This document shows positions 16,594 through 27,478 of a stretch of 64,000 nucleotides of DNA, in pieces. A program made the position numbers and the translations under genes. Under the pieces are notes generated by a model. That model searched no databases. It was not told the origin of the DNA and was given only the letters and a program-made list of their open reading frames with translations. The DNA lies in the NCBI GenBank assembly GCA_001818315.1, contig MHKF01000011.1, forward strand, positions 44,825 to 108,824, read 5' to 3'. Every line of letters starts with the position of its first letter. Position 1 is the first letter of the stretch. The DNA comes from Candidatus Kerfeldbacteria bacterium RIFCSPLOWO2_02_FULL_42_19 (GTDB taxonomy: Bacteria; Patescibacteriota; Patescibacteriia; HO2-48-17).

Positions 16594-17127
16594 TTAGAAT
16601 TCAATGCTTTGTCCTTGTTTGAGAATAACCATCGCACGTTTGGTATCCTTCTGTTTTCCAAAAAATCTTCCGAATCGTACGTGTTTTCCCATACGCTTCA
16701 TAACATTTACACGCCTCGCATGGACACCATACACTCGCCGTATAGCTTCTTTAATCATTATCTTATTTGCACCCACGCCGACTTCAAAAAAATACACATT
16801 GTTCTTCTTCTGCTTTTCTGATTTTTCGGTTACAAGAGGCCGCAGTAAAATCTGAAAAGCTGTTTTTGTATCTTCTTTTGATTGATGCGTCTTTTGTGCT
16901 TGCTCTTCCTTGTCTTGGTCTTGCGTTGCTTTGATTGTTTTGCTTTCACGTGCCTTCACTTCTTGTTGCTTCGCTGTAGCTTCTAAATGCTTTGGCTGTT
17001 TCTGTGGTTCTCCATGAATAGACATTTGAGATTTTTCCTCTCCTGACTTTTGAGGTACACCTTTTTTACCTTCCTGCGAAGGTATCGGTGTTTTTTTCTT
17101 CTGTTTGAGAAAGTCAAAAAATCCCAT
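16594..17127 (-). CDS. rplW: 50S ribosomal protein L23 with roughly 80-aa low-complexity N-terminal extension
   Basis: C-terminal 95 aa (LLRPLVTEKSEKQ...VILKQGQSIEF) is canonical L23. The N-terminal K/E/Q-rich region is lineage-specific. Confidence 0.85.
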   Translation of the reverse strand: MGFFDFLKQKKKTPIPSQEGKKGVPQKSGEEKSQMSIHGEPQKQPKHLEATAKQQEVKARESKTIKATQDQDKEEQAQKTHQSKEDTKTAFQILLRPLVTEKSEKQKKNNVYFFEVGVGANKIMIKEAIRRVYGVHARRVNVMKRMGKHVRFGRFFGKQKDTKRAMVILKQGQSIEF

Positions 17128-18371: not shown

Positions 18372-18462
18372 AATTTCTCATTGAACAAAAAAGCCGCAAT
18401 CTTACTCCAGCGTCTTTTTATGCGAAGGAAGAATTGTTTTCGTGATAATCTTTAGAATAACA

Positions 18463-18798
18463 TTACATTTTAATTTCGATATCGACTCCTGCCGGCAAAT
18501 TCAAATTACTCAGATCCTCAATCGTTTTTGGCAAAGGATTTATAATATCGATCAGTCTCTTATGCACACGCATTTCGTATTGCTCACGAGAATTTTTATG
18601 CACGAATGGAGAACGAATTACAGTATAACGATTCTTTTCTGTTGGGAGAGGTATAGGACCCGCAATATTCGCGCCAGATTGTTGTGTGGTGCGAATAATA
18701 GTTCGGCACGCTTGATCAATGATTTTATGATCGTACGCGCGAATCTTAATACGAATCCTCTGCTGTGTTTCCTCTTCCTGTTTTTTCACTGTCGCCAT
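18463..18798 (-). CDS. rpsJ: 30S ribosomal protein S10
   Basis: [24 protein letters not shown]...GPIPLPT. Confidence 0.94.
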
Positions 18799-18885
18799 GC
18801 GTTGTGCTTATGAAAGAATCTTGATGAAGGAAATCATCAAGCTACGAACCACGTGTTTATTATGTTACGCGGCTCGTGTGCCTGA

Positions 18886-20079
18886 TTATTTCAAAATTTT
18901 TGTAATGACACCCGCGCCTACAGTATGTCCACCTTCACGAATAGCAAACTTCTGTTTTTCTTCCATTGCTACTGGACCGATAAGCTTTACTTTGACCTGT
19001 GTCGTATCTCCGGGCATGATCATTTCTGCGCCTTTTGCAAGTTCATTGACTTCGCCGGTCACATCTGTAGTGCGCATGTAGAATTGCGGCTTATATCCTT
19101 TTACAAAAGGAGTATGTCGACCTCCCTCTTCTTTGGATAACACATACACTTCAGCTTCGAATTCTGTATGCGGCGTAATAGTTCCTGGCTTAGCAATAAC
19201 CTGACCGCGTTCAACGTCTTCTTTCTTCGTGCCACGCAACAAGACTCCGGCGTTATCACCTGCTCGTCCCTCATCCAAAGATTTATTGAACATCTCAATA
19301 CCTGTAATAACTGACTTCTGTGTTTGTTTCAGCCCGACGATTTCGACATTGTCGTTTAATTTTACCATACCACGTTCGATTCTACCGGTTACAACGGTGC
19401 CGCGACCTTCAATGGAAAAGACATCTTCTACCGGCATTAAAAATGGCTGATCAGTTGCGCGTTGTGGTTCGGGGATATAGCTATCCATTGCTGCAACTAA
19501 ATCCAGAATGGGTTTAGTCACTGCTGCATCAGATGGGTTCTCTAAGGCTTTCAGTGCTGATCCTTTAATGATAGGAATTTCGTCTCCTGGGAAATTATAT
19601 TTCTTCAAGAGATCACGCACCTCTACTTCGACGAGATCAATAAGTTCTTTGTCATCAACCTGATCGATTTTATTCAAAAACACAATAATGTATGGCACCC
19701 CCACTTGTCGTGCCAGAAGAATATGCTCACGAGTTTGCGGCATTGGGCCATCTGCTGCCGATACAACGAGAATCGCTCCATCCATTTGAGCTGCTCCGGT
19801 AATCATGTTTTTAATATAATCGGCATGTCCAGGACAATCGACGTGTGCATAGTGACGATTGTCTGATTCATATTCTACGTGCGTCGTGGAAATTGTAATA
19901 CCACGTTCTTTTTCTTCTGGCGCATTATCGATTTCATCAACACTCTTATTCTGCGCTTTTTTTCCGGCAGCTAACAGGACTTTCAAGATAGCGGCAGTGA
20001 GAGTAGTCTTTCCGTGATCCACGTGTCCAATAGTTCCCACATTAATATGCGGCTTAGTGCGTTCGAATTTTTCGGCCAT
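18886..20079 (-). CDS. tuf: Elongation factor Tu
   Basis: [27 protein letters not shown]-motifs; 397 aa. Confidence 0.97.
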
Positions 20080-20253
20080 ACACTTGATTAAAAACTTAAG
20101 TTAGTAATGCCAACACTAACACTTCATTATTTCCTTTATTGATCTCGTGAAGTTCAGGAAGATGAAGTCGCTAGCGGAAACACATGATTGATGATGTGTC
20201 TCGGTAGTAGAGATGTATCCTATTATAACACATCTTTTTCCTTTGGCAAGTTT

Positions 20254-20697
20254 TTATGCGGATCGACTGACTGTAGGCTCTGTATAATGCGCTTTTGCTC
20301 CATTGGGGCGAGCCAAATTTGCATTGGTATCAGTCATCTGTTGCCGATAATTCGCAATGTCTTTGTTTATTTTTTCGAGGAGTTCTTCTTCATTCAGACT
20401 CTCTTGTTGTTCACTAAGTTTTTGCACCACTTTCCTTCCTGCTGATTGTTGTCCTCCTCCTGCTGTTTGGATCGTTTTCTTTTGCATTGCAGACGCTGTA
20501 GACGACATTGGAGGTGTATTTATTTTCTTGATTGGAAGATTCGGCATGCTTGTCTGTGACAAGTTACTGGACATTCGATCCATGAAGCGTTCGTATTCAT
20601 CAAAAGTGACGATGACATAGGCTGGCTCGTCGTTTTCGATAATAATACATTTATCGCCTGTTTTTCTCGCTAACCGCAAGATCCTTTGCATATCCAT
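20254..20697 (-). CDS. Phd/YefM-like antitoxin-fold domain protein with S/Q/N-rich tail
   Basis: N-terminal ILRLARKTGDKCIIIENDEPAYVIVTFDEYERF matches the Phd/YefM core (...I.R.G.P.AVLVS.EEYE.L); about 100 aa of low-complexity tail; diverges from the 677-aa gene across a shared 218-bp intergenic region. Confidence 0.4.
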   Translation of the reverse strand: MDMQRILRLARKTGDKCIIIENDEPAYVIVTFDEYERFMDRMSSNLSQTSMPNLPIKKINTPPMSSTASAMQKKTIQTAGGGQQSAGRKVVQKLSEQQESLNEEELLEKINKDIANYRQQMTDTNANLARPNGAKAHYTEPTVSRSA

Positions 20698-20915
20698 ACT
20701 ATAAGGAATAATAATAAAGTTTTCCCTATCTTAATACAATTATCGCTATTGTCAAGGAAAAATTTTGCAAAAAATGAGAAGGTATGTTACGTTATTCCCA
20801 CTCTATGGAAGTACATGGTTTTTGTATGTATTTTTTTACATTGACAACTGAGTTTGCGTTGGGTGCATAAAGAGCAGTCTTACGCGATGACAGATTTACT
20901 CTGTAGGAGGGTCTG

Positions 20916-22949
20916 ATGAAGAAACTAGTGCTTGGAATACTTGTAGGTCTATTCATTGTAAATGGCTTCTTTCGTAGTGTTCTCTTGTACGAGGAATACA
21001 TCGGTGTGGAAACTACTGGATCTAATATGATGCAGTATCGTGACATGGGTGTATCTGTTCAACAATTCCTTTCTCATCATCACGATGTAATGCCTCTCAT
21101 ATACGCTTTGGAACGCGACCGTGGCTTTGCACTGGCACTGATACTGTCTTGCGGAGTGAAATTCATAGGAAAAAATATCAGTGAAAAAACGGGTGAGCGA
21201 TTGAATTGGGAATCTCCGGATGCCCTGTATCGCCTCGATCATCCAAAAGCTCATCCCACAGATATTCCGGACGCTGAGATTATTGTGTATTTCGACAACC
21301 AAGGTGTATTTGTGGATTTTCAAATTCCCGCAACGCTCTTTGTCTTTGCGCAGTTTCCGAAGTTTTCGTATAACACGCTCATGAAAATGTATTGGACGAA
21401 GGGAGGTGGAAGATCGTCTCTTATGAAAGAATTTGAAAAGTTCGAGCGAACTTTTCGTGAATACCTCGAAAAATATGCAACCGATAATCCGCTTTTCGCC
21501 GCAGCTTCCAAAGTATATACACCGGCAGAACTTGTGAAGCTGAGTTCGTATGCAGCGTTTGACCAGATGCTTCTACAACTTATCCAGACGTACTATGCAA
21601 AACTGCAAAAAGTCGACAAAGCTGCTGTTTTGGAACAATCCATGATAGAACAGGGTCGCATCTGGGTTTTGACGTACTTTAATGCATGCAAGAAAATACA
21701 TGGTCTGTATTTTCTGTGGCTCCAAATTCAACTGTTCTTTCCACTCGGCTGCATAGTACTTTCGCTGGTGTATATTGTGATCCAATTGCGCCGGAAAGAT
21801 TTGTTCGGACTCATTACTGCGGTGCTGCGAGAAAACGATTTGAGAACTTCTTGGTGGCGTATTGATACTCTTACGATCATACTTTCCGTCATACGAAAGC
21901 ATCCACTTCTCTTGCTGTGGCAACCAACCGATGAACGCGTTCGATGTTCGATTACTCCGACGTGTTCACAACTTCTGCGCGCGTACGAAGAGCGTCAGAA
22001 TCTTCGACTGCTTGCGACGAAGGCTTTAGAACTTTCAGAAACGTGCCGACACCGTTTTCACGGCGACGTGCCCAAGAGTCTTCAAGGACTTCTCACTGTA
22101 AGTTTAGATCCAACCCGCACAGTCACTGTGAGAGAGGATGCTCTTCTGCAGATCCGGAAGCATCTTCAATTGTCTCCTCGCAATGGAAAAAACGGTTCTG
22201 GAACTTACCCGAGACCTGCTTCACAAGATCTCCGGAAAGATAGTGTTCCACAAGCATGGCAACAACGAAAGGAGGTCATCGAAAAAATTCTTGCTCTCAC
22301 GAGCGAACATGCGCCTGATATAACTCCTATTGACGCTGCTTTTTTTGAGACTTTTTCATGGCGCAAAATCGAAATGTGTGAGCGGACGGTGAGAATCCTC
22401 GCACACGAACCGCTATTCTTGGAAAAATTCTTTGGACTTTCCAAAGATCAGATCAAAGGTCTTCTCAATCCTGATTCTAGGTTTCTGTGTGCCGTGTTGA
22501 CGGAAGACTTTGATGCTCTTGGGCAACTCTTGGGTGTTCGTGTGGATGAAACACAAACCGCAGAAGTATCTCTGGTAGAAAATAGTTCGCGTCTGCTTGC
22601 TGGTCAACGTGTTGTTATTTTTGGCGGCGCGCGGACTGAAATACCAGATATTCAAAAGCGTCTCATAGATGTCGTACTGAAACTTGGCGCTCAATCGTGC
22701 GAATTCAGATACTGCAACGATCTTGGTAGATTAATGAGCAGCATCACTGCTGCGGTTGATATATGGATTGTACTGATCGCTACGGTACCGCACCTCATCA
22801 CAGACAAACTCACTGCGGAAATACGTTCGGAACTTCTCTTGAACATACGGTACCTCAACGCGGAACGATTCCGCAGTGAACTGATCCAAAAAATACAACT
22901 TGCAGAGTCCAGGAAGAGTTCGAGAAATAGGATTTCCACTCTGCCGTAA
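20916..22949 (+). CDS. Hypothetical 677-aa membrane protein inserted between tuf and fusA
   Basis: Good SD (GGAGGG) 7 nt before the ATG. N-terminal signal-anchor (LVLGILVGLFIVNGFF) and a mid-protein TM pair (~aa 265-295). C-terminal roughly 110 aa has an alpha/beta pattern (VVIFGGAR...LGA...VDIWIVLIATVPH) reminiscent of DUF2325-type Rossmann-like modules; this is from memory and unverified. Confidence 0.6.
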   Translation: MKKLVLGILVGLFIVNGFFRSVLLYEEYIGVETTGSNMMQYRDMGVSVQQFLSHHHDVMPLIYALERDRGFALALILSCGVKFIGKNISEKTGERLNWESPDALYRLDHPKAHPTDIPDAEIIVYFDNQGVFVDFQIPATLFVFAQFPKFSYNTLMKMYWTKGGGRSSLMKEFEKFERTFREYLEKYATDNPLFAAASKVYTPAELVKLSSYAAFDQMLLQLIQTYYAKLQKVDKAAVLEQSMIEQGRIWVLTYFNACKKIHGLYFLWLQIQLFFPLGCIVLSLVYIVIQLRRKDLFGLITAVLRENDLRTSWWRIDTLTIILSVIRKHPLLLLWQPTDERVRCSITPTCSQLLRAYEERQNLRLLATKALELSETCRHRFHGDVPKSLQGLLTVSLDPTRTVTVREDALLQIRKHLQLSPRNGKNGSGTYPRPASQDLRKDSVPQAWQQRKEVIEKILALTSEHAPDITPIDAAFFETFSWRKIEMCERTVRILAHEPLFLEKFFGLSKDQIKGLLNPDSRFLCAVLTEDFDALGQLLGVRVDETQTAEVSLVENSSRLLAGQRVVIFGGARTEIPDIQKRLIDVVLKLGAQSCEFRYCNDLGRLMSSITAAVDIWIVLIATVPHLITDKLTAEIRSELLLNIRYLNAERFRSELIQKIQLAESRKSSRNRISTLP

Positions 22950-23022
22950 TATTTATTCACCCTTCCCTATCCTCGTATGAGTGTCAGAAATTTTTCTGCC
23001 AACTTGTGCGAGGATAGTTTGT

Positions 23023-25107
23023 TTATGCGCCCTGTTTTTCTTTGATCGCATCTACAATACTCTGCGGTGCTTGAGCGTATTGCGAAAATTCCATCGTGTA
23101 ACTTGCTCTGCCTTGCGTCATGGAACGTAATGTCGTTGCGTAACCAAACATTTCCGCGAGTGGCACTTCCGCTCGAATGATCTTCATCATACCGCGATCG
23201 GTCATTTCGTGAATCTTTCCGCGCTTTGCATTTAAGTCACCGATCACATCGCCCATATAATTTTCTGGAGTGATCACTTCTACTTTCATCATCGGCTCCA
23301 ATAATACCGGCTTTGCCCTTCTGGATGCTGCTTTCAAAGCTATAGAACCAGCAATTTTGAATGCAGCTTCTGAAGAATCAACTTCGTGATACGACCCGTC
23401 ATATACGGCTACTTGAATATTGATCAGCGGATATCCTGCAACAACACCTTTATCCAAAGCTTCTCGTACGCCCTTTTCGATCGCTGGAATGTACTCTTTT
23501 GGAATCACGCCCCCTTTGATCGCATCTTCAAAAGTAAATCGTTCTGTCGAATCTTTCAGCGGTTCCACTCGTAAGAAACAATGGCCATATTGCCCACGTC
23601 CTCCAGATTGTCGAATATACTTCCCTTCTGCTTCAGCTGTCTGTGTTATCGTTTCTTTATACGCGACCTGCGGTTTTCCGACATTTGCTTCAACATTAAA
23701 TTCACGCTTCATACGATCCACGATAATTTCGAGATGGAGTTCGCCCATACCTGAAATAACAATTTGATTCGTTTCTTCGTCGCTCTTCACACGGAATGTT
23801 GGATCTTCCTCTGTAAGATGAGAGAGCGCGAGTCCCATTTTTTCCTGATCTGCTTTTGTCTTCGGTTCTATTGCGATAGAAATGACAGGCTCTGGAAAAG
23901 TAATATTTTCCAAAGCAATGGACTGATTGATATCACACAACGTATCGCCGGTTTTAATACCTCTCAGCCCAACGACTGCTGCGATATCACCTGCTTGTAC
24001 TGCTTTAACTTCTTCCCGATGATTTGCGTGCAAACGCACAATGCGAGAAATACGTTCTTTTTTTTCTGAATTACTATTCAGCACATATGTTCCAGCTTGC
24101 AACATTCCTGAATACACTCGCACGAATACCAATTTTCCAACGTACGGATCAGTAGCAATTTTAAACGCCAACGCCGCAAGCGGCTCAGTGCTTGAGGTTT
24201 TACGTTCAAGTGTTTTTGTTGTGTCTCTCAGTTCAGTTCCCTTGACTGGTGGAAGATCTAACGGCGATGGAAGGTAGTCTACGATCGCGTCGAGCAGTTT
24301 TTGTACTCCTTTATTTTTTAATGCGCTCCCGCAGAGTACTGGCACAAGAGTACCGGTAATTGTATTTTTGCGGAGTTGTTGTTTTAAAGTTTCTAAAGCA
24401 ATTGTTTTTCCTTCAAGATACTCGTGCATCAGTGTATCATTGTGCTCTACAATCGCTTCAATAAGTTTACCGCGATATTCCGTGACTTTTTCTTTCATGT
24501 CAGATGGAATATCTGTTTCTAGGATCTCTTTTCCAAGATTGTCTTTATAAATGTAAGCCTTCTCTTTGAGAAGATCGACGATACCTTGAAAATTTTCTTC
24601 CGTGCCAATAGGAAGTTGCAGAGGGTGAGCATTTTTTGAAAGGCGCTCATGAATGGAAGCGAGATCAGCATAAAAATCAGCGCCTGTGCGATCGAGCTTA
24701 TTAATAAAACAAATGCGAGGCACGTGATATTTTTCTGCTTGATGCCAAACTGTTTCGGACTGCGGTTCTACGCCTGCTACACCGTCAAAAATAACAGCGC
24801 CTCCATCGAGCACCCTCAGCGAACGTTCGACCTCTACCGTAAAATCCACGTGACCCGGAGTATCGATAATATTAATTTGTTTCCCATTCCAAAAACACGT
24901 TGTTGCTGCCGCAGTAATTGTTATGCCTCGCTCACGTTCCTGTTCCATCCAATCCATCGTTGCTTCACCTTTGTGTACTTCTCCCATCTTATGTTTTTTA
25001 CCGGTATAAAAAAGCACACGCTCCGTGACGGTTGTTTTCCCCGCATCGATGTGAGCAATAATTCCAATATTGCGTATATTTTCAAGTCGTTTAATATCTG
25101 CGTCCAT
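23023..25107 (-). CDS. fusA: Elongation factor G
   Basis: [21 protein letters not shown] motifs. Conserved start [16 protein letters not shown] at ATG (rc) 25105-25107. Confidence 0.96.
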
Positions 25108-25159
25108 GCTATTACGTGTTAAAAATGAGACGTGTTCATGAATGATTTTTCTCAATCTA

Positions 25160-25834
25160 TCAACATACTTCTTGATTGTTTTTCATCTCGCAACTCTTTA
25201 AAAATGTTGTCCCACCTGTTTTTTTATCTACCATTTCATAGATGATAACTGATTCCGGAAAATTCGTTGCGACAGTTGCGATGAGAAAAAAATCTGTATT
25301 TATCCATCCTCGTAATTCATATCTTTGTGCTGCATTTTTATCTCCCGCAGGTTGAGAAACAGGAAGCATCGTGACACTTGTATCTCCATTCTTCCAGTAC
25401 CCAATTTGTTGCGCTGGCACTTGCGCTGTATCTCCCGCACTTCTATTTTCGAGCATAAATATGACATGGCCATCTTTCTGATTCCAGCACAGTTCTACTA
25501 CTTCTTGAAAACCCTGCGCATCAGATGTGATGTATTTCCCTTCTGCTTTTTGAAAACTTTGATACCAAGTTACTTGCGCTAATTCGGAAGGTAATTTTGT
25601 ACACAACGAAGAGAAATGATCCAATGGCACACGTGATGACTGCGTCTGTTGCGCCGTGTTTATTATACTGCTTTTCGTATTGCTCTCGTTTTGATTTTTA
25701 ATCGATACCTCCGACACCTCCCGTGTTTCATTTGGTTGTTCTAGCACTCTTTGTATTTTAAATCCGTTCTTAACTAATAAAACACTAAACGCCCCTATCA
25801 AGAGCACCGCCAAAATTGCTTGTATTTTTTTCAT
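25160..25834 (-). CDS. Hypothetical membrane-anchored protein inserted between rpsG and fusA
   Basis: Start at [21 protein letters not shown] (single N-terminal TM); extracytoplasmic Q/S/N-rich linker and a roughly 150-aa domain with no recognisable motif. Confidence 0.5.
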
Positions 25835-25850
25835 AAGCAACGCAGGAAAC

Positions 25851-26315
25851 TTAAGCAAAGTGCGCAAAGGCGCGATTTGCTTCTGCCATACGCTGTACAT
25901 CTTGCTTCTTTTTCACTGCGTCTCCTTCGTTTTTGCTTGCCGCGATAATTTCTTCTGCAAGCTTTTCTCGCATCGGTTTTCCCTTACGACTCGCTGCAGC
26001 ACCAATAATCCATCGAAAGGTGAGTGCTGTTCTTCTAGTCCCTTTTACTTCAACCGGAACCTGATAATTAGAGCCTCCGATTCGTCTCGAACGCACCTCA
26101 ACCATGGGCGTAACGTTACGCACTGCAAGATCAAACATATCAAGCGGATTTTGATTTGTTTTTTTCTGTATAATATGAAAGCAATCGTAGACAATTTTCT
26201 GTGCTACGGTTTTTTTTCCCCGTTCCATGATCGCATTAATAAACTTTGCTATAATCGTGCTGTTATATTTTGGGTCTGGATCAATGTCTCGTTTAGGTGA
26301 TTGTTTTCCACGCAT
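25851..26315 (-). CDS. rpsG: 30S ribosomal protein S7
   Basis: PDPKYNSTIIAKFINAIMERGKKTVAQKIVY. Confidence 0.94.
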   Translation of the reverse strand: MRGKQSPKRDIDPDPKYNSTIIAKFINAIMERGKKTVAQKIVYDCFHIIQKKTNQNPLDMFDLAVRNVTPMVEVRSRRIGGSNYQVPVEVKGTRRTALTFRWIIGAAASRKGKPMREKLAEEIIAASKNEGDAVKKKQDVQRMAEANRAFAHFA

Positions 26316-26337
26316 ACGTTAATATTATTCTTGAATT

Positions 26338-26757
26338 TTATACTTGCTTCGCTTTTTCTTGTTTCGCGCCATACAGGCTCCTGCCTTGCTTACGACCCTC
26401 CACGCCGCCAGCGTCATAGACTCCACGCACAATATGGTAGCGTACTCCTGGCAAATCTTTCACACGACCGCCGCGCACGAGAACAATAGAGTGCTCCTGT
26501 AAATTATGTCCGATACCCGGAATATAAGCAGTAATTTCCATGCCATTCGAAAGTCGTACTCGAGCAATCTTTCGCAGCGCGGAATTTGGTTTTTTTGGAG
26601 TCATTGTTGTCACCTTCACACACACGCCGCGCTTTAATGGATTTCCTTTGAATTGGATTTTTTGCTGGCGCTTTAATGCGTTAAGATTTGATTGCAATGC
26701 TGGTGTTTTCGACTTTTGCCGAGTGATCGAGCGACCCTTGCGAATCAACTGATTCAT
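26338..26757 (-). CDS. rpsL: 30S ribosomal protein S12
   Basis: Conserved start MNQLIRKGR at ATG (rc) 26755-26757; [16 protein letters not shown] and [10 protein letters not shown] motifs. Confidence 0.92.
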
Positions 26758-26827
26758 CGTAGCCACAGGATTGTTGTGATTAAAAATAAGTAGTGTATTG
26801 GATATTAGCAAAAAAAATTCGCTTCCG

Positions 26828-27478
26828 TCAAATACCGAGCACAATGCGTTCGATAATAAAATTATATACGAAACTGATTACAGTTTGTAGCAACGATCCG
26901 CCGACTATGATAAACACAAGTAACAAGATTGCTCCGTATCGTTCGAGGAATTCGATGATATGATTCTTTGAATACGGCAGAAAGCTATAGAGGAGTTTAG
27001 AGCCGTCGAGCGGTGGGATAGGTATAAGATTGAAAAGCAATAATACGAGATTGATTTGCAGTAAGCTTAGAATAAATCGCAGGAGGAGATTCCCTTGCCC
27101 AAGTTCAGTTTGATTCCAAAGCAATTTGAGCGCAAAAGCAAAGATTATGACTGCAATAAGGTTTGCAAAAGGTCCTGCAAGACCTACAAGTGCGGGACCA
27201 AAACGTTTATTGCGCAAAGCATAGGGATTAAATGGAACTGGCTTTCCCCATCCGAATCCAACGAGAATGAGTAAAATGAGTCCGAGATAATCAACGTGCG
27301 CCAATGGATTGAGCGTGAGTCTTCCTGCTTGTTCTGCGGTTCGGTCGCCTTGTAAATGACCTGCGAGTGCATGCGAAAATTCATGAATCGTAATACCAAA
27401 AATTACTGCGAGTATCCATATTAAAAATAGTGAGGGTTCGGAAAAAAGATATGTAAGCCCCATATTGATGCTGAACAA
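26828..27478 (-). CDS. Site-2 protease-family zinc metalloprotease (peptidase M50)
   Basis: [10 protein letters not shown] (HExxH) in a TM helix, LNPLAHVD and GPFANL motifs; 4-6 TM helices. Confidence 0.8.

Follow-up and report, generated by a model that had tools for sequence, protein, structure and literature searches.

The fusA-tuf interval

The 64,000-nucleotide stretch of Candidatus Kerfeldbacteria bacterium RIFCSPLOWO2_02_FULL_42_19 analysed here (the window) contains the str and S10 operons, within which the genes encoding EF-G (fusA) and EF-Tu (tuf) are separated by 2943 nt, measured from the fusA stop to the tuf start. Two open reading frames (ORFs) are present in this interval, a 147-aa ORF on the minus strand (ORF147) and a 677-aa ORF on the plus strand (ORF677); these are divergent, with a spacer of 218 nt (Table 1). 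The minus-strand order is rpsL, rpsG, a 246-aa ORF, fusA, ORF147, tuf, rpsJ, rplC and the rest of the S10 operon. ORF147 shares the strand of fusA and tuf, and only ORF677, which is convergent with fusA, is inverted. The description given in a first-pass annotation of this DNA, in which fusA and tuf are split by 2.9 kb holding this divergent pair, was confirmed in both coordinates and layout. The fusA start used in the ENA gene call yields a product of 694 aa. The ORF147 protein is identical to NCBI OGY79637.1 from Candidatus Kerfeldbacteria bacterium RIFCSPHIGHO2_02_FULL_42_14, and is named 'hypothetical protein' in that record and 'Antitoxin' in UniRef.

Table 1. Coordinates of features in and around the fusA-tuf interval (positions in the window)
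Feature	Position	Strand	Basis or remark
tuf (EF-Tu, 397 aa)	18886..20079	-	Pfam GTP_EFTU, D2, D3; E down to 6e-65
tuf 5' leader, predicted structured	20080..20215	-	Minimum free energy -30.9 kcal/mol, z = -2.73
Promoter-like site for tuf	20222..20249	-	TTGCCA-16-TGnTATAAT, 11/12; begins 5 nt past the ORF147 stop
ORF147, small-protein family member directly upstream of tuf	20254..20697	-	Homologues, alignment A4
C-terminal aromatic-acidic motif HYTEP, ORF147 residues 137-141	20275..20289	-	Alignment A4
LxEKINKD(I) helix motif, ORF147 residues 106-114	20356..20382	-	Invariant through D113
Phd/YefM-like N-terminal domain, ORF147 residues 1-41	20575..20697	-	Sub-threshold PF02604
Conserved block, divergent intergenic region	20701..20851		~90% identical to L001 over ~150 nt, alignment A6
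Promoter-like site for ORF147	20728..20755	-	TTGACA-16-TAAGAT, 10/12; conserved in L001
ORF677, two-transmembrane (two-TM) membrane protein, lineage-specific insertion	20916..22949	+	L001 homologue, exhaustive HMMER search
ORF677 TM1 / signal anchor, residues 3-22	20922..20981	+	Hydropathy; AlphaFold helix 2-34
ORF677 TM2, residues 263-291, then RRKD	21702..21788	+	Hydropathy maximum 2.44; one continuous modelled helix
ORF677 C-terminal α/β domain, CheY-like fold, residues 563-674	22602..22937	+	Modelled β-α-β-α-β-α-β-α, residues 565-674
Inverted repeat between convergent ORF677 and fusA	22967..23017		16-nt arms, 81% complementarity, plus a nested 9-nt pair
fusA (EF-G)	23023..25155	-	EF-G domains by Pfam

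A related contig (L001) showed the same arrangement as the window, with homologues of both ORF677 and ORF147 beside tuf. Its ORF677-like protein, which ends at 380 aa at the contig edge, was 42% identical to ORF677 (E 3e-115), and its ORF147-like protein, of 153 aa, was 57% identical to ORF147. The first 89 residues of the tuf product were 97% identical to those of the window. The proportion of synonymous differences (pS) between the two was ~0.75 and saturated; the proportion of nonsynonymous differences (pN) was 0.36 for ORF677, 0.25 for the whole of ORF147, 0.023 for the first 37 codons of ORF147 and 0.019 for tuf. As the arrangement is kept in L001 and pN is far below the saturated pS, the comparison indicates that ORF147 and ORF677 are both genuine genes. 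The N-terminal domain of ORF147 is identical at 36 of 37 residues in the two sequences and, judging from its pN, evolves approximately as slowly as EF-Tu.

The intergenic region between the divergent genes contains a conserved block (Table 1) that includes both -35 elements, repeated ACATAC motifs and the inverted repeat TACAT(AC)...(GT)ATGTA. That this block matches L001 so closely when the synonymous sites of the genes on either side are saturated is a sign of regulatory DNA under constraint, and the block may be an operator or other regulatory element.

A small gene resident beside tuf

Relatives of ORF147 were recovered through a metagenome scan with a two-sequence alignment and a genome scan with a five-sequence alignment and the pattern L[LI]EKINKD, and the loci were mapped using tblastn and ORF lists. 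The scans yielded nine lineages beyond the window (L001, L009, L010/L018/L020, L011/L013, L012, L014, L015, L016 and L017), together with a variant locus, L019. In each of the 10 lineages recovered, and in the L019 variant, the small gene was located immediately 5' of tuf and in the same orientation. Most of these lineages are Patescibacteria (candidate phyla radiation, CPR) genomes.

The genes further upstream were not constant. The order rpsL-rpsG-fusA-small gene-tuf-rpsJ(-rplC) was present in L015 and L017, and, as far as the contigs reach, rpsL-rpsG-fusA-small gene-tuf was present in L009, L018 and L020. The remaining loci read uppP...small gene-tuf-rpsJ (L011/L013, L012 and L014), fusA-trmD-methyltransferase-16S rRNA-small gene-tuf (L016, the 16S rRNA being identified by Rfam) and rpsF-rpsR-small gene-tuf (L019). 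Since fusA and everything else upstream vary among the loci, the stable unit is the small gene with tuf. One and the same 109-aa small protein is encoded behind fusA in L018/L020 and behind rpsF-rpsR in L019, two contexts that come from different assemblies. An ORF677-like gene was identified by tblastn or ORF lists in none of the mapped loci L009 and L011-L020, and is absent from nine lineages that carry the small gene beside tuf. ORF147 is a resident partner of tuf.

As in the canonical str and S10 operons, rpsL, rpsG, fusA, tuf, rpsJ and rplC are kept in order on one strand in the window. Unlike the canonical str operon, L009, L015, L017 and L018/L020 have the extra small gene between fusA and tuf, and the window has in addition the inverted 677-aa gene at this position and the 246-aa gene between rpsG and fusA; tuf also apparently has a strong, sequence-predicted promoter of its own. 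Multigene insertions between the str and S10 operons have been reported by Brandis et al. 2019 (PMC6735719) in Gammaproteobacteria only, and a small tuf-linked gene is not described there. No description of a fusA-tuf gene in CPR bacteria, or of YefM in Patescibacteria, was found in the literature.

The alignment of the family (alignment A4) showed a shared plan, comprised of an N-terminal domain of ~40 residues, a variable linker, an LxEKINKD motif in a predicted helix, and an acidic tail. The linker is long and Q/S/K-rich in the Kerfeldbacteria members. Residues L106, E108, K109, I110, N111, K112 and D113 are invariant in 10 of 10 members, although this invariance was partly built in by the motif-based search, and the combination of a YefM-like N-terminal domain with LxEKINKD seen in the alignment is likewise to be read with the motif's use for recovery in mind. 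A motif of the Y-Y/F-x-E-P type is present near the C-terminus in 7 of 10 members. The tail of ORF147, previously taken for a merely disordered Q/S/N extension, is conserved over residues 89-147, which include LxEKINKD. Eight of the ten members are acidic (pI 4.4-5.3), and across the family the net charge of the N-terminal domain lies between -3 and +1. The small proteins of different lineages share only 27-37% identity, and a word-indexed protein search with ORF147 returned itself and one relative.

The N-terminal domain had been assigned to the Phd/YefM antitoxin core. The resemblance stands, but the score required for membership is not reached: PF02604 matched ORF147 with 21.1 bits (E 2.7e-4), below the gathering score of 29.8, over profile positions 15-51 of 74, leaving the first strand region uncovered. 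The profile was matched by 6 of the 10 family members at E<=1 (best E 6.5e-6), all below the gathering score. An hhalign comparison with E. coli YefM, using a manually entered YefM sequence, gave a probability of 40% over 32 columns, and a PDB profile search placed YefM (PDB 2a6q) and Rv2865 (PDB 3g5o) in the top four matches, but at E ~0.8. As the PF02604, PDB-profile and hhalign matches are all weak, a YefM fold is plausible, not proven. Like the Phd/YefM antitoxins, ORF147 has ~40 N-terminal residues that align to the α-β-β-α core and a plan of small N-terminal domain, flexible linker and C-terminal helix, and public pipelines label it an antitoxin; the L015 homologue is annotated as 'Phd/YefM family antitoxin'. 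Unlike them, the family has its own LxEKINKD helix and Y-Y/F-x-E-P motif, most of its members are acidic, and its position is fixed beside tuf instead of lying in mobile or patchy loci.

No toxin gene adjoins the small gene in any of the ~11 loci, which agrees with the earlier statement that a RelE- or Doc-type toxin is missing beside ORF147. On one side the small gene is flanked by tuf, and on the other by fusA, ORF677, 16S rRNA, uppP or rpsR. The gap between the small gene and tuf is 174 nt in the window, where it contains only a promoter-like site and the predicted leader, and 67-236 nt in the other loci, where the screen consisted of ORF lists with a 50-80 aa cut-off or of a search for promoter-like sites.

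Within positions 18400-26900 of the window, only two promoter-like sites reach 10/12 or more, and both flank ORF147 (Table 1). Comparable sites are present between the small gene and tuf in other loci, with shuffled sequences doing as well in at most 2.6% of trials in 7 of 10 loci. Most of the small genes also have a promoter-like site upstream, including a perfect consensus in the 58-nt spacer between fusA and the small gene in L009. These patterns suggest that in most loci the small gene is transcribed from a promoter of its own, and that a second, strong promoter just past the small-gene stop serves tuf. The predicted tuf leader is mostly missing in L001 and is thus not conserved.

Some further observations were made on individual loci. 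The 16S rRNA gene of L016 (3284-4780) is complete, and together with trmD and the methyltransferase gene it separates fusA from the small gene and tuf in a Patescibacteria genome. A (CTAA)n microsatellite lies immediately upstream of the small gene in L018 (5824-6000) and L019 (5753-5898). The L017 record (CAYSSY010000019.1), which carries the small gene, is titled 'uncultured Gammaproteobacteria bacterium'. Its str/S10 proteins nevertheless match those of the window as closely as the Patescibacteria ones do, with 67% identity for EF-G and 78% for EF-Tu, and the bin has probably been given the wrong label.

The ORF677 membrane-protein family

No sequence match to ORF677 was found in Pfam, NCBIfam, PADLOC or the PDB, and word-indexed protein searches with the single sequence and with the family profile returned only itself. 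Among 1.84 billion representative proteins scanned exhaustively with HMMER, ten reached E<=1e-3, namely ORF677 and nine others. Eight of these nine (P0005-P0012, 457-728 aa, E 5e-7 to 1e-3) are collinear with ORF677 from TM2 through the cytoplasmic helices to the C-terminal domain, and pairwise tblastn of the relatives against the window gave E down to 1e-12. The second-best match, P0004 (2321 aa, E 9.7e-10), aligned to ORF677 residues 439-473 in 12 separate stretches, a pattern that resembles repeats or low complexity more than homology.

The first-pass annotation had described a signal anchor, an internal TM hairpin and a C-terminal Rossmann-like module likened to DUF2325. ORF677 was modelled with AlphaFold on a 9-sequence alignment, with a mean predicted local distance difference test score (pLDDT) of 63; the single-sequence model had a pLDDT of 36. 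The signal anchor was supported by the hydropathy of TM1. The hairpin was not, as residues 263-291 were modelled as a single helix, and residues 263-292 are more likely one long TM helix. With a single TM2, the protein would therefore have an N-in, two-TM topology, with an external domain of ~240 aa and a cytoplasmic part of 385 aa. The external domain was poorly modelled, and the highest confidence was in the cytoplasmic helices, at residues ~450-540 (block-mean pLDDT 77-87).

The C-terminal α/β module was likewise upheld, and the model shows the (β/α) order of a flavodoxin-like fold of the CheY-like kind. Unlike CheY-like receivers, with which its sequence identity is 4-15%, the domain has no acidic pocket; the phospho-acceptor Asp after β3 and the acidic pair after β1 are lacking. 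In ORF677, β1 ends in FGGAR and β3 in IATVPH, and the family keeps GG after β1 and a conserved His after β3. The Response_reg hidden Markov model did not match ORF677. The proposed DUF2325 identity was not borne out, with no match to PF10087 for full-length ORF677 at E<=1 or for seven isolated C-terminal domains at E<=10, noting that HMMER filters can hide very weak matches. A Foldseek search of the model against the PDB gave no match at E<0.001. A B12-binding domain was considered and rejected, as it rested only on weak Foldseek matches and the DxHxxG motif is absent. The C-terminal domain is joined to a two-TM membrane protein without a kinase domain. On the modelled structure, the family is one of sparse, unannotated two-TM membrane proteins with a sensor-like topology, a helical cytoplasmic part and a CheY-like end; nothing remarkable about ORF677 itself has emerged yet.

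Seven ORF677-family genes were located in unrelated contexts, without tuf, fusA or a YefM-like gene as a neighbour. The neighbouring genes encode NIF3 (three cases, convergent), a ROK kinase, a HemN-like radical-SAM protein, RRM and UPF0102 proteins, and GreA with a cupin. The convergent NIF3/DUF34 gene is directly downstream of P0006, P0007 and P0008 (L003, L004/L005 and L023), an association that may come from shared ancestry rather than a functional link. The suggestion that ORF677 homologues recur beside YefM-like genes or in defence islands found no support; none stands beside a YefM-like gene, PADLOC gave no match for ORF147 or ORF677, and the neighbours of these two are ribosomal and housekeeping genes.

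ORF677 is a later, lineage-specific insertion between fusA and the small gene with tuf, present only in this Kerfeldbacteria lineage and L001. An origin from a mobile element was rejected: the GC content is unremarkable, neither repeats at the flanks nor an integrase or tRNA was observed, and a 42%-identical homologue is present in L001. The ORF677 protein probably has a signalling or scaffolding role at the membrane that is unrelated to ORF147.

Readings of the interval and further features of the locus

ORF147 and ORF677 had been proposed to act as one functional module, inserted together, in which an antitoxin-domain regulator would control the divergent membrane effector. The conservation of the divergent pair in L001 speaks for this proposal, as do the ~150 nt of shared intergenic DNA, with both -35 elements and the inverted repeat, that are ~90% identical despite saturated synonymous sites. 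However, nine other lineages have the small gene by tuf and no ORF677-like gene, and seven ORF677-family genes stand elsewhere with no YefM-like neighbour. Because the small gene stays with tuf when ORF677 is absent, and relatives of ORF677 occur elsewhere in the absence of the small gene, the two genes do not form a conserved module. It is tuf that the small gene consistently accompanies; the proposal is largely refuted as a general module and we regard it as improbable. The possibility that the interval is generic hypothetical filler had also been raised. The two genes are indeed unlinked in relatives, as expected of filler, but the retention of the small gene by tuf is not. We consider it reasonably probable that the interval comprises two independent things: a tuf-linked ORF147 that is antitoxin-derived, toxin-less and tied to tuf or translation, and an inserted ORF677.

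A mechanism can be put forward tentatively. ORF147 would be a domesticated antitoxin-type protein whose YefM-like domain dimerises, and whose invariant helix and C-terminal motif serve to bind a protein of the translation machinery, EF-Tu being the prime candidate; ORF677 would be unrelated. The small protein might even be an unrecognised CPR-specific, antitoxin-derived translation factor, a YefM-fold dimer whose LxEKINKD helix and aromatic-acidic tail dock on EF-Tu, another translational GTPase or the ribosome and modulate its activity or availability. We hold this form of the proposal to be doubtful; were it true, such docking would explain why the small gene has been kept by tuf through repeated rearrangements.

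The main rival is that ORF147 is a DNA-binding transcription factor like YefM/Phd, which would regulate itself, control the tuf(-S10) promoter, or both. Characterised Phd/YefM domains bind operator DNA as dimers, and strong promoter-like sites are present on both sides of the gene. An AGATGT/ACATCT inverted repeat, shorter in L001, brackets the tuf -10 element in the window. Short TAAT-N3-4-ATTA palindromes overlap the small-gene promoter in the window, L011 and L014; these palindromes, absent from several loci, were dismissed as evidence of operators, being too short and lying in AT-rich DNA. The rival is weakened by composition, since most members are strongly acidic, with an N-terminal domain near neutral or negative in charge, and by the apparent loss of an arginine: most members have an acidic residue where hhalign places Arg31, a DNA-binding residue of E. 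coli YefM, and the alignment lacks the first β-strand region. By analogy with YefM, a role of this kind is conceivable, but we judge it unlikely.

Alternatively, ORF147 could be a type II antitoxin of the usual kind, orphaned or degenerate, either left over from a toxin-antitoxin locus or paired with a toxin encoded in trans, that simply landed beside tuf. Such an origin would fit the weak PF02604 similarity and the public antitoxin labels of ORF147 and the L015 homologue. Toxin-antitoxin loci are mobile and patchy, yet the position by tuf is kept across lineages whose small proteins have diverged to 27-37% identity, and it has outlasted rearrangements that removed fusA. The N-terminal domain is approximately as slow-evolving as EF-Tu, the invariant motifs of the family are absent from the Pfam model, and a toxin gene adjoins at no locus. 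A chance orphan is thus very unlikely in our view, and the automatic 'Phd/YefM antitoxin' annotation is probably misleading for this family.

Several findings weigh against the reading of ORF147 as an antitoxin-derived partner of tuf or translation beside an unrelated ORF677. The link of ORF147 to translation, and with it the choice of EF-Tu, is drawn from synteny alone, and the plausible YefM fold comes from sub-threshold matches over only ~37 residues. An exact-motif DNA scan matched 6 of 185,579 species genomes, and the small-gene family may have a narrow distribution and not extend throughout Patescibacteria. The conserved block shared by the two genes leaves room for their local co-regulation in the window lineage and L001. 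The model of ORF677 is only moderately confident, as its mean pLDDT indicates.

Patescibacteria have reduced genomes and unusual ribosomes, and to our knowledge few lineage-specific translation components have been described for them. A toxin-less YefM-like gene kept by tuf is a concrete candidate for a Patescibacteria translation factor or a regulator of tuf. If the reading is true, ORF147 would be a case in which a core housekeeping locus has taken up an antitoxin fold. ORF677 adds an unannotated membrane-protein family with a receiver-like domain.

Other features of the locus were also noted. The inverted repeat between the convergent ORF677 and fusA is possibly a bidirectional terminator, and an Rfam search gave no match inside the fusA-tuf interval. 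The 246-aa ORF (25160-25900, minus strand), which has an N-terminal membrane anchor, lies between rpsG and fusA on their strand. It showed no significant match in Pfam, NCBIfam or PADLOC; Cas4 models alone were matched, weakly and below threshold (E 0.089 and 0.007). As rpsG and fusA directly adjoin in L009, L015, L017 and L018, this ORF represents a second lineage-specific insertion in the str operon. Read from its first start codon, the uL23 (rplW) ORF (16594-17127, minus strand) would encode 177 aa, of which ~75 form an N-terminal extension rich in K, E and Q; uL23 of L011 is likewise extended, at 140 aa.

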